The position numbers were made by a program, and so were the translations under genes. The notes below the pieces were generated by a model. It saw only the letters and a list, made by a program, of their open reading frames with translations. It did no database searches and was not told where the DNA came from. A stretch of DNA of 38,563 nucleotides from Candidatus Omnitrophica bacterium CG11_big_fil_rev_8_21_14_0_20_63_9 (GTDB taxonomy: Bacteria > Omnitrophota > Gorgyraeia > Aquiviventales > Aquiviventaceae): contig PCVX01000052.1 of NCBI GenBank assembly GCA_002796105.1, forward strand, positions 1 to 38,563, given 5' to 3'. Each line of letters opens with the position of its first letter. Position 1 is the stretch's first letter. Below, in pieces: positions 7,680 to 7,770 of this stretch.

Positions 7680-7770
7680 CACCACAGAGCCATAGAATTC
7701 CACAGAGACACAGAGCGGCAGTTTTCGGCATGTCTCTGTGCCTCTGTGTCTCCTCTGTGCTTCTGTGGTG
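7680..7770 (+). repeat. CACAGAG/CTCTGTG hairpin element, copy 1 of 3 (REP/MITE-like)
   Basis: The termini CACCACAGA (7680-7688) and TCTGTGGTG (7762-7770) are perfect inverted repeats. The left arm has degenerate CACAGAR units, the right arm has CTCTGTG units, and the loop is ~17 nt. The same architecture and termini occur at 24383-24472 and 35759-35853, all in the same orientation. Confidence 0.85.

Follow-up and report, generated by a model that had tools for sequence, protein, structure and literature searches.

Known short repeats

Repetitive extragenic palindromic (REP) sequences, with the related bacterial interspersed mosaic elements (BIMEs) and the REP doublets forming hairpins (REPINs), are palindromes of 20-40 nt that carry a 5' GTAG (or CGTC) tag, lie strictly outside genes and are specific to their species. 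They stabilise upstream mRNA, and they affect translation when they lie near stop codons. Miniature inverted-repeat transposable elements (MITEs) are small, have terminal inverted repeats, lack a transposase and occur in many copies; duplication of a TA or YTAR target is the target preference of IS630- and IS5-type insertion sequences. Cyanobacteria carry short tandem heptamer repeats, the short tandemly repeated repetitive (STRR) sequences, in intergenic regions. In this report we describe a hairpin repeat built from tandem heptamers, which occurs three times in a 38,563-nt contig (PCVX01000052.1, the window below) of Candidatus Omnitrophica bacterium CG11_big_fil_rev_8_21_14_0_20_63_9.

Four published repeats resemble parts of this element. 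Geobacter metallireducens has 21 paired sites in which three tandem TCTCCGTS[Y] repeats lie on opposite strands at variable distance, and the authors named them class 2 putative global regulator binding sites (Aklujkar et al. 2009, PMC2700814). The predicted signal peptide of Yersinia pestis YPO1552 is in part made up of the enterobacterial repeat RU-2 (Delihas 2007, PMC2759123). Rickettsia palindromic elements are described, in the citing paper, as in-frame insertions in protein-coding genes, where the added stretch of peptide is tolerated (Ogata et al. 2000, cited in PMC2759123). Beggiatoaceae carry TAACTGA heptamer repeats in intergenic regions (PMC4679880).

We think it probable that the three copies in the window are interspersed hairpin repeats lodged in tight gene junctions, and that two of them supply the signal peptides of a chaperone-like protein and a secretin. 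The kind of phenomenon is already known, with the Geobacter paired repeats, RU-2 and the Rickettsia palindromes as precedents. What is new is the architecture of a palindrome made of tandem heptamers, its spread across phyla with invariant units and free spacers, and a coding capacity that resembles a signal peptide on both strands.

Three hairpin repeats in the window

The cores of the three copies are as follows.

7679..7771, forward strand: copy 1, a 93-nt hairpin repeat ACACCACAGA...TCTGTGGTGT, within the 5' end of the chaperone-like gene as proposed below
24381..24473, forward strand: copy 2, a 93-nt hairpin repeat ACACCACAGA...TCTGTGGTGT, intergenic
35758..35854, forward strand: copy 3, a 97-nt hairpin repeat TCACCACAGA...TCTGTGGTGT, within the 5' end of the secretin gene as proposed below

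The inverted termini of copies 1 and 2 are perfect over 10 nt, and copy 3 differs from them in its left terminus, TCACCACAGA. Each arm of each copy holds three or four CACAGA(G/A) units or their complement, and column by column the three copies are 81% identical. Every CACAGAR heptamer in the window (21/21) lies inside the three elements, a number that shuffling never reached. The string CACCACAGA occurs 7 times in the window, which has a G+C content of 64%, against 0.25 expected, and 6 of the 7 are element termini. Each copy is predicted to fold into a single long interrupted hairpin, at -47.3, -48.6 and -53.9 kcal/mol for copies 1, 2 and 3, with z-scores of -6.5 to -7.0, and the opposite strand folds equally well. 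The termini, the counts and the fold energies confirm the elements that the first-pass annotation had put at these positions and read as hairpins; the layout of genes and Pfam domains likewise agrees with its placement of all three at gene junctions.

Two smaller points of that annotation fared less well. The copies do share one orientation, as it had noted, but this is uninformative, as the reverse complement of a near-perfect palindrome again reads CACAGA and then TCTGTG. The loop motif GTCG that it described is present in copies 2 and 3 and is not clear in copy 1. Active avoidance of CACAGAR outside the elements was also considered and dropped: none is observed where a first-order model expects 7.8 and third- and fourth-order models about 2, and the shortfall is not significant.

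Three independent assemblies, made from different samples, contain copy 2 without a single base difference (L121-L123; contigs of the same strain, with zero variation), and the copy is therefore no assembly artefact.

Copy 1 and the chaperone-like protein

Two features describe how copy 1 may be read.

7673..7786, forward strand: proposed signal-peptide coding region of the chaperone-like gene, peptide MTTPQSHRIPQRHRAAVFGMSLCLCVSSVLLWCQQALA / FSFSVEP
7730..7732, forward strand: in-frame ATG in the loop, taken as the start by the first-pass annotation and by the database gene call P0001 (7730-8488, 252 aa); possible alternative start

All 89 chaperone-like orthologues examined have an N-terminal signal peptide, with a median length of 25 aa, which ends in a small-x-small motif directly before a conserved F(S/G)F(S)VEPxRIEL. 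In the window, nothing but the element and five codons (QQALA) lies between the upstream stop and FSFSVEP, and the AxA cleavage motif lies 3' of the element. By this comparison the element appears to occupy the place of the signal peptide of the 89 orthologues, and the earlier proposal that its right arm encodes the hydrophobic core of the signal peptide gains support.

The earlier choice of the loop ATG as the start does not hold up as well. A GTG at 7673 overlaps the upstream stop TGA (7674-7676) as GTGA, and the frame is open from there through the element. At the same junction an orthologue of 75% identity (L124) carries a copy of the element that has diverged and whose loop lacks an ATG, and the L124 gene starts at an ATG that overlaps the upstream TGA as ATGA, at the position equivalent to GTG 7673. 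Two further orthologous loci also begin in a stop/start overlap, TAATG in L125 and ATGA in L127. From these three starts it follows that the whole of copy 1 is probably translated, and that the gene probably starts at GTG 7673 rather than at ATG 7730.

With initiation at 7673, the left arm would encode a basic n-region with three Arg and the right arm the h-region. The peptide has the makeup of a Sec-type signal peptide: three Arg, then LCLCVSSVLLWC, then ALA/FS. Its best 12-residue hydropathy is 2.38, versus an orthologue median of 2.58.

The L124 copy keeps a near-perfect 41-bp hairpin (-72 kcal/mol) within the coding sequence, with changes from A-U to G-C on both arms. In L125 a low-GC relative of the element, with GATTACACAGATT units and a TCGTCGA loop, lies at the N-terminus of the chaperone-like protein.

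As a separate observation, the gene calls of eight other chaperone-like orthologues (P0009, P0011, P0031, P0037, P0053, P0055, P0074 and P0087) reach into other repeat-like N-terminal peptides, among them AFRIPHSAL, IRNSEYEIR, NPKSKIQNPKF, WKLEAGYWKPE and SLKAQGSRLKA. This suggests that other hairpin-repeat families may sit at the same chaperone junction in other Omnitrophota.

Copy 3 and the secretin

35730..35867, forward strand: proposed secretin signal-peptide coding region, start at ATG 35730 or at the in-frame ATG 35748, peptide MLQLLKMRSITTESQKLTEAQRRGVVRRFLCVSVMVLYLCGVAVQA / EEPAPS

The peptide read through copy 3 also has the makeup of a Sec-type signal peptide, with seven Lys and Arg residues, then FLCVSVMVLYLC (hydropathy 2.63), then VQA/EE. 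Nearly all secretin orthologues begin with ordinary signal peptides. The closest of them (L248, 78% identity, from the same sample as L124) starts at an ATG which is equivalent to 35730 and overlaps the end of the TPR gene, and its N-terminus reads MPPYPSKRSGTHGRVLLGCSAALLVSAVARVVMA / EEPSDA (...VVMA/EEP). The hairpin is absent at this secretin junction (z -0.95), as against -53.9 kcal/mol in the window. The first-pass annotation had pointed to orthologous junctions that lack the element as an informative comparison, and L248 supplies one: there is no hairpin and there is still an ordinary signal peptide. The presence of the element therefore differs between relatives, and the window copy fills the place of a signal peptide. 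The database gene call for the window secretin (P0093, called in window 35748-37988) begins at residue 55 of the open reading frame (ORF) from ATG 35748, and is therefore left without any signal peptide.

In one frame the loop sequence TCG(A/T)CGA reads Arg-Arg before the hydrophobic arm, as in VVRRFLCV of copy 3 (35800-35815) and in SRRAVLC and ARRAFLC of other loops of the window subfamily described below. The likeness to a twin-arginine motif is superficial, and it is probably a by-product of the CGACGA palindrome.

A repeat family in many phyla

The first-pass annotation took the element for a REP- or MITE-like repeat that should recur elsewhere, and the copy number beyond the window bears this out. 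A two-gap core pattern matched at least 120 loci in a collection with one genome per species, where our own arithmetic expects about 11 matches by chance. In the general form, (A/T)TTCACCACAGAG is followed by two or three more CACAGAG or CACGGAG units, an unconserved loop of 10-50 nt and a mirror image ending in CTCTGTGGTGAA. Among the matches listed are Planctomycetota, Acidobacteriota, Chloroflexota, Gemmatimonadota, Verrucomicrobiota, Kiritimatiellota, Lentisphaerae, Omnitrophota, Bacteroidota, Chlorobiaceae and Clostridia, together with alpha-, beta-, gamma-, delta- and zetaproteobacteria. Some of these matches may come from contaminated bins, a doubt that does not touch the four isolates among them (Shewanella, Propionivibrio, Azospirillum and Alcanivorax). 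The closest relatives of the window element among the matches listed from this collection are in an Omnitrophota genome (L042, L086). The family is also carried by 31 contigs of a viral collection, sometimes in many copies per contig and also in tandem arrays.

A metagenome scan with the window termini gave at least 73 distinct cores that share the four-unit architecture of the window copies. Loops of this subfamily often contain TCG(A/T)CGA. Many of its cores carry outer arms of about 27 nt, CTAGAAnnTGTTTCAnAAACCnCCGATG ... GGTTTTGAAATGAnTTCTAG, which end in CTAG-like sites and extend the element to a form of about 150 nt. At a distance of about 27 nt from the core, CTAG-like sites occur on both sides in 14/64 and on one side in 24/64, against 0 and 10 in control windows. 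In the window itself, the left outer arm of copy 2 is recognisable and the right one is shortened, and copies 1 and 3 consist of the core only.

An alignment of 39 cores shows units that are nearly invariant, with spacers between them that vary and are not complementary between the arms. Among the 39 cores a double change was found in only 3 of 27 consensus pairs, mostly from L124. With units invariant and double changes so few, this is not the signature of a structure kept by covariation. The pattern is also unlike that of recently copied elements, because those would share their spacers.

The gene context was counted from crude ORF calls around the copies, among the matches listed. Flanking gene pairs are tandem in 61 cases, convergent in 19 and divergent in 8 for the general form, and 33, 4 and 8 for the window subfamily. 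Of the stop codons that point towards an element, more than half are no further than 30 nt from its edge. The family thus occupies very short spacers of every kind, chiefly at co-directional junctions, in the manner of REP-type elements.

Other searches returned little. The window and eight related loci had no Rfam match at the gathering threshold, with chance-level miRNA hairpins at E >= 0.04. BLAST of the general-form consensus against annotated plasmids and phages gave no match, possibly owing to the low-complexity filter. A literature search for the unit strings found unrelated primers or nothing.

Several variants were seen beside the family. One viral-collection contig (L262) has tandem arrays at 3571-4029 and 6352-6776, with periods of 153 and 149 nt and about 3 copies at 99% identity, in which the unit combines a CACAGAG hairpin with a second repeat motif, GCGCAAAGACGCCAAGGACGCAAAGAGG. 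A Prevotella locus (L065, 24-238) has head-to-tail hairpins. A variant low in GC, found in six gut metagenome contigs (L180, L197, L199, L207, L227 and L231), keeps the termini, has CACAGATTA units and lies between conserved TTTTGATAGTTT and AAACTAAATTTC. An 89-nt hairpin shares the termini ACACCACAGA...TCTGTGGTGT and has an unrelated interior, AAAATACTCTTT...GCGCGCGC...AAAGAGTATTTT. It occurs in inverted pairs 4.3-5 kb apart, at 9510-9597 and 13857-13944 of L166 and also in L194 and L229, and as about 30 single copies (e.g. L128, L136, L139); pairs of the L166 type lie next to a tRNA gene. These pairs were considered as the ends of an autonomous transposon and rejected: the 4.3-5 kb between them encodes a LexA-like S24 peptidase, a C5 DNA methylase and a helix-turn-helix protein, and no transposase. 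Further unrelated hairpins share the 10-nt termini (L151, L159, L167/L216).

What the element encodes

Either strand of the element reads (CACAGAG)n, loop, (CTCTGTG)n. In all frames (CACAGAG)n encodes His, Arg, Thr, Gln, Glu, Ser and Ala, and (CTCTGTG)n encodes Leu, Cys, Val, Ser and Ala; the units are free of stops in every frame. Any ORF that runs through the element therefore gains a polar or basic stretch followed by a hydrophobic one, a predicted product that recalls the n- and h-regions of Sec signal peptides. As this signal-peptide-like reading comes in any orientation, the 5' ends of genes for exported proteins would be a permissive landing place.

Four fusions outside the window fit this description: a solute-binding lipoprotein with its Pfam domain from residue 60 (L219), a pseudopilin leader (L191), a copy of the general, TTCACCACAGAG-type form in a Thermoanaerobaculia genome with no alternative start (L080), and the low-GC relative at the chaperone N-terminus of L125. 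The idea of a portable signal-peptide cassette, raised in the first-pass annotation, is thus borne out in a few cases. It does not extend to the family at large, in which fusions are sporadic, few among about 220 copies, and almost without trace in profile searches of protein databases.

Copy 2 and PilC

The third copy lies between genes, at the start of a PilC gene, and its surroundings are as follows.

24378..24479, forward strand: ORF through copy 2, 33 codons, MTPQRHRISQRHRGLVGEISLCFCGTSVVLWCR*, with an ATG directly 5' of the core and a TGA that overlaps the PilC ATG at 24476 as ATGA
24349..24380, forward strand: left outer flank of copy 2, CTAACACAACAGCTCACTATCCGCTAGGATG, which resembles the subfamily outer arm CTAGAAGCTGTTTCATAAACCCCCGATG and holds the upstream stop TAA (24351-24353)
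24474..24486, forward strand: shortened right outer flank of copy 2, AGATGAGTTCTCG as against GAAATGAGTTCTAG in the subfamily, which holds the PilC start codon

PilC can be aligned with its orthologue from residue 11 on, and an in-frame TAG lies directly 5' of 24476, which is therefore the PilC start. At the PilC junction of L125 the element is absent.

This arrangement recurs in the subfamily: an ORF begins before the core, passes through it and ends at a stop that overlaps a second start. ATG, GTG or TTG stands directly before ACACC on one strand in 45/73 subfamily cores (among the matches listed), and ORFs through subfamily cores often end in an (A/G)TGA overlap. A built-in 'coupling ORF' was considered on this ground and rejected. 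Fused or restarting long ORFs follow 13/46 start-bearing strands versus 24/98 opposite strands; start-bearing strands are not richer in long downstream ORFs, and the layout is therefore not claimed as an adaptation.

Comparison with known systems

Like REPs, BIMEs and REPINs, the family consists of short multicopy imperfect palindromes at the 3' ends of genes and at operon junctions, with conserved stems and variable loops. It differs from them in arms that are arrays of tandem heptamers with the same sequence across phyla. The termini, (A/T)CACCACAGA, lack the REP tag, and copies 1 and 3 lie, by comparison with orthologues, within what would be 5' coding regions. A scan of 30 ORFs in the 38.5-kb window found no domain of a REP-associated tyrosine transposase (RAYT) or of any other transposase.

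The element has the outward traits of a MITE: terminal inverted repeats, small size, many copies and no transposase. CTAG-like (YTAR) sites close the outer arms of the 150-nt form, as they would in a MITE derived from an IS630- or IS5-type element. As evidence of target-site duplication these sites are ambiguous: they flank both sides in the 14/64 given above, are themselves palindromic, and are missing at window copies 1 and 3, and a duplication cannot be told from an inverted repeat because CTAG is a palindrome. Presence and absence differ between relatives, with copy 3 missing in L248 and no element at the PilC junction of L125, though these relatives are too diverged for a clean empty site. 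An IS630- or IS5-type parent would have to match the ends GAAGCTGTTTCA... or TTCACCACAGAG, and a search that was not exhaustive found no autonomous insertion sequence with the same ends.

Against the Geobacter class 2 repeats, the comparison rests on the published consensus: TCTCCGTS[Y] is the complement of CACGGAGA, the variant unit of the present family, and CACGGAG/CTCCGTG units in the class 2 layout are found in many copies, among them L018, L028, L060, L064, L073 and L124, of which the last is built from such units. Both sets of repeats are multicopy and lie at gene junctions. The Geobacter repeats were reported from one genome, in a supplement, and read as protein-binding sites, with translation, signal peptides and spread across phyla unmentioned (PMC2700814). 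RU-2 belongs to an unrelated family with a different architecture, is known from a single hypothetical protein in this role, and has no strand-symmetric coding of a polar and then a hydrophobic stretch. The Rickettsia elements are comparable by analogy only; as described in the citing paper they are restricted to Rickettsia, lie within proteins rather than in export signals and have no tandem heptamers. STRR and TAACTGA repeats share with the family multicopy intergenic arrays of 7-nt units in distant lineages. They differ in being direct arrays, not inverted pairs that form a hairpin, and in the sequence of their units.

Weighing the explanations

Beginning from what is observed directly (the repeat family, its hairpin potential, positions, distribution and presence or absence, and the match to orthologous signal peptides), we infer transposition, the true starts of translation and whatever effect the hairpin may have on mRNA. 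The element would spread by transposition, with CTAG-like ends that would fit an IS630- or IS5-type parent. Insertions would persist where they do little harm, in tight gene junctions, and one close to the 5' end of an exported protein's gene could be read through and still look like a signal peptide in either orientation. As to the hairpin, the effect that we favour is that, directly after a stop-overlapping start, it would block independent initiation, and the downstream gene would be translated only by ribosomes arriving from the upstream ORF.

Several points weigh against this explanation. The searches described turned up neither a transposase nor a clean empty site, nor any target-site duplication free of ambiguity; mobility is inferred only from the copy number and from presence or absence between relatives that are 75-78% identical. 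The near-invariant units suggest that it is their sequence that is constrained, and it is not obvious why this should be so in an element that is purely selfish. The hairpin retained in L124 could mean selection on the structure itself, and it fits either such selection or homogenisation against the other copies in that genome. Fusions are rare, with a handful among some 220 copies, and profile searches of protein databases with the encoded peptide returned seven and five proteins, none of them a recognisable fusion to a characterised protein. The signal-peptide function of copies 1 and 3 is a prediction from sequence.

A different explanation is that the hairpins are selected cis-regulatory RNAs at operon junctions, acting in coupling, as attenuators, as RNase III sites or in 3' protection, with the coding of signal peptides as a side effect. 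Their stability speaks for it, as do the L124 copy, in which pairing survives changes on both arms and stability is even higher, the overlap of start and upstream stop at copy 1 and its orthologues, and the copy 2 ORF with its ATGA overlap, a layout that recurs in the subfamily. We nevertheless regard it as unlikely. The counts of fused or restarting ORFs (13/46 versus 24/98) show no orientation bias, copies also sit between convergent and divergent genes, and the orthologous secretin (L248) and PilC (L125) junctions do without the element. No T-run follows any copy (the sequences that follow are CAGCAAGC, AGATGAGT and GGCAGTAC), there is no terminator-like site around copy 1 within 7400-8000, no Rfam family matches, and the stems are conserved as sequence and not by covariation. 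The units may instead be read as double-stranded DNA sites for an abundant DNA-binding protein, of the 'global regulator / IHF-HU site' kind. Invariant units with variable, non-complementary spacers and variable loops would suit such sites, as would a heptamer kept across phyla, and binding of a regulator is what was proposed for the repeats of Geobacter metallireducens (Aklujkar et al. 2009, PMC2700814). That proposal is itself a hypothesis, however, no binding protein is known or was found here, two of the window copies appear to lie inside coding sequence, and a conserved binder would be needed in very distant phyla; we hold this explanation to be very unlikely.

For copy 1 alone, translation could begin at the loop ATG 7730 and cover only the right arm. 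This start is in frame and is the one used by gene call P0001, and the resulting 19-aa peptide, MSLCLCVSSVLLWCQQALA, retains the hydrophobic core and the AxA site. We find it doubtful, since the peptide has no basic residue before the h-region, the L124 loop has no ATG, L125 and L127 share the stop-overlapping start, and the loop ATG lies inside a hairpin of -47 kcal/mol with no visible ribosome-binding site. It is possible that ATG 7730 serves as a second start of the chaperone-like gene. As read from the window sequence, no in-frame start 3' of it would leave a leader of more than 10 residues. Finally, chance palindromes or an assembly artefact would account for the low-complexity look of the sequence and for nothing more; against the heptamer, terminus and fold statistics, the identity in three assemblies and the hundreds of related copies elsewhere, the probability is negligible. 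Copies 1 and 3 make a well-supported case, on sequence comparison, of repeat-derived signal peptides in two envelope-machinery genes.

Gene neighbourhoods

The neighbouring genes were identified by Pfam scans of the 30 window ORFs.

Copy 1: upstream, a 186-aa gene of no recognised kind (7116-7676); downstream, the chaperone-like, Ig-fold-like protein and then a 1017-aa protein
Copy 2: upstream, a coiled-coil protein (23373-24353); downstream, T2SS-F/PilC (24476-25537)
Copy 3: upstream, a TPR protein (33653-35746); downstream, the secretin

The homologues of the chaperone-like protein and of the secretin carry the source label Candidatus Omnitrophica. The related Omnitrophota locus L127 has the same pilus-like gene cluster, preceded at positions 1-4770 by the end of a giant ORF that exceeds 4737 residues.

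The window also holds a c-di-GMP-I-GGC riboswitch aptamer at 11870-11991 on the reverse strand, with 59.9 bits where the gathering score is 59. It lies upstream of a small ORF on that strand, within 11541-11912, which is convergent with the 1017-aa gene and whose product is probably secreted (MFAMRIDRWLVVLAFGWLAMMGTTVAWA/DSD...). Two genes with PilZ domains are found at 2295-2699 and 2752-3219. A different, ordinary-looking hairpin at 6486-6526, a G+C-rich inverted repeat of 18 bp with 83% complementarity and a 5-nt loop, lies between the stop of a 650-aa gene (4507-6459) and the next gene (6547).

Significance

The element has so far been glimpsed only in one Geobacter genome paper (PMC2700814). 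The conservation of its heptamer across phyla, with free spacers and loops, points either to a protein that mobilises or binds the element or to horizontal spread on an unusually wide scale. It is also an annotation hazard, as the repeat makes gene calls P0001 and P0093 lose part or all of their signal peptides. The widest claim would be that a single family across most bacterial phyla is a strand-symmetric source of export signals and translated junction linkers, and a general means of replacing or creating signal peptides, with a hairpin that ties expression to upstream translation; we judge this quite unlikely. If the narrower explanation preferred here, that copies 1 and 3 supply two signal peptides, is true, the locus would be a clean example of selfish repeats turning protein-coding, in which a palindrome that mimics a signal peptide on either strand could take over the targeting signal of exported proteins.

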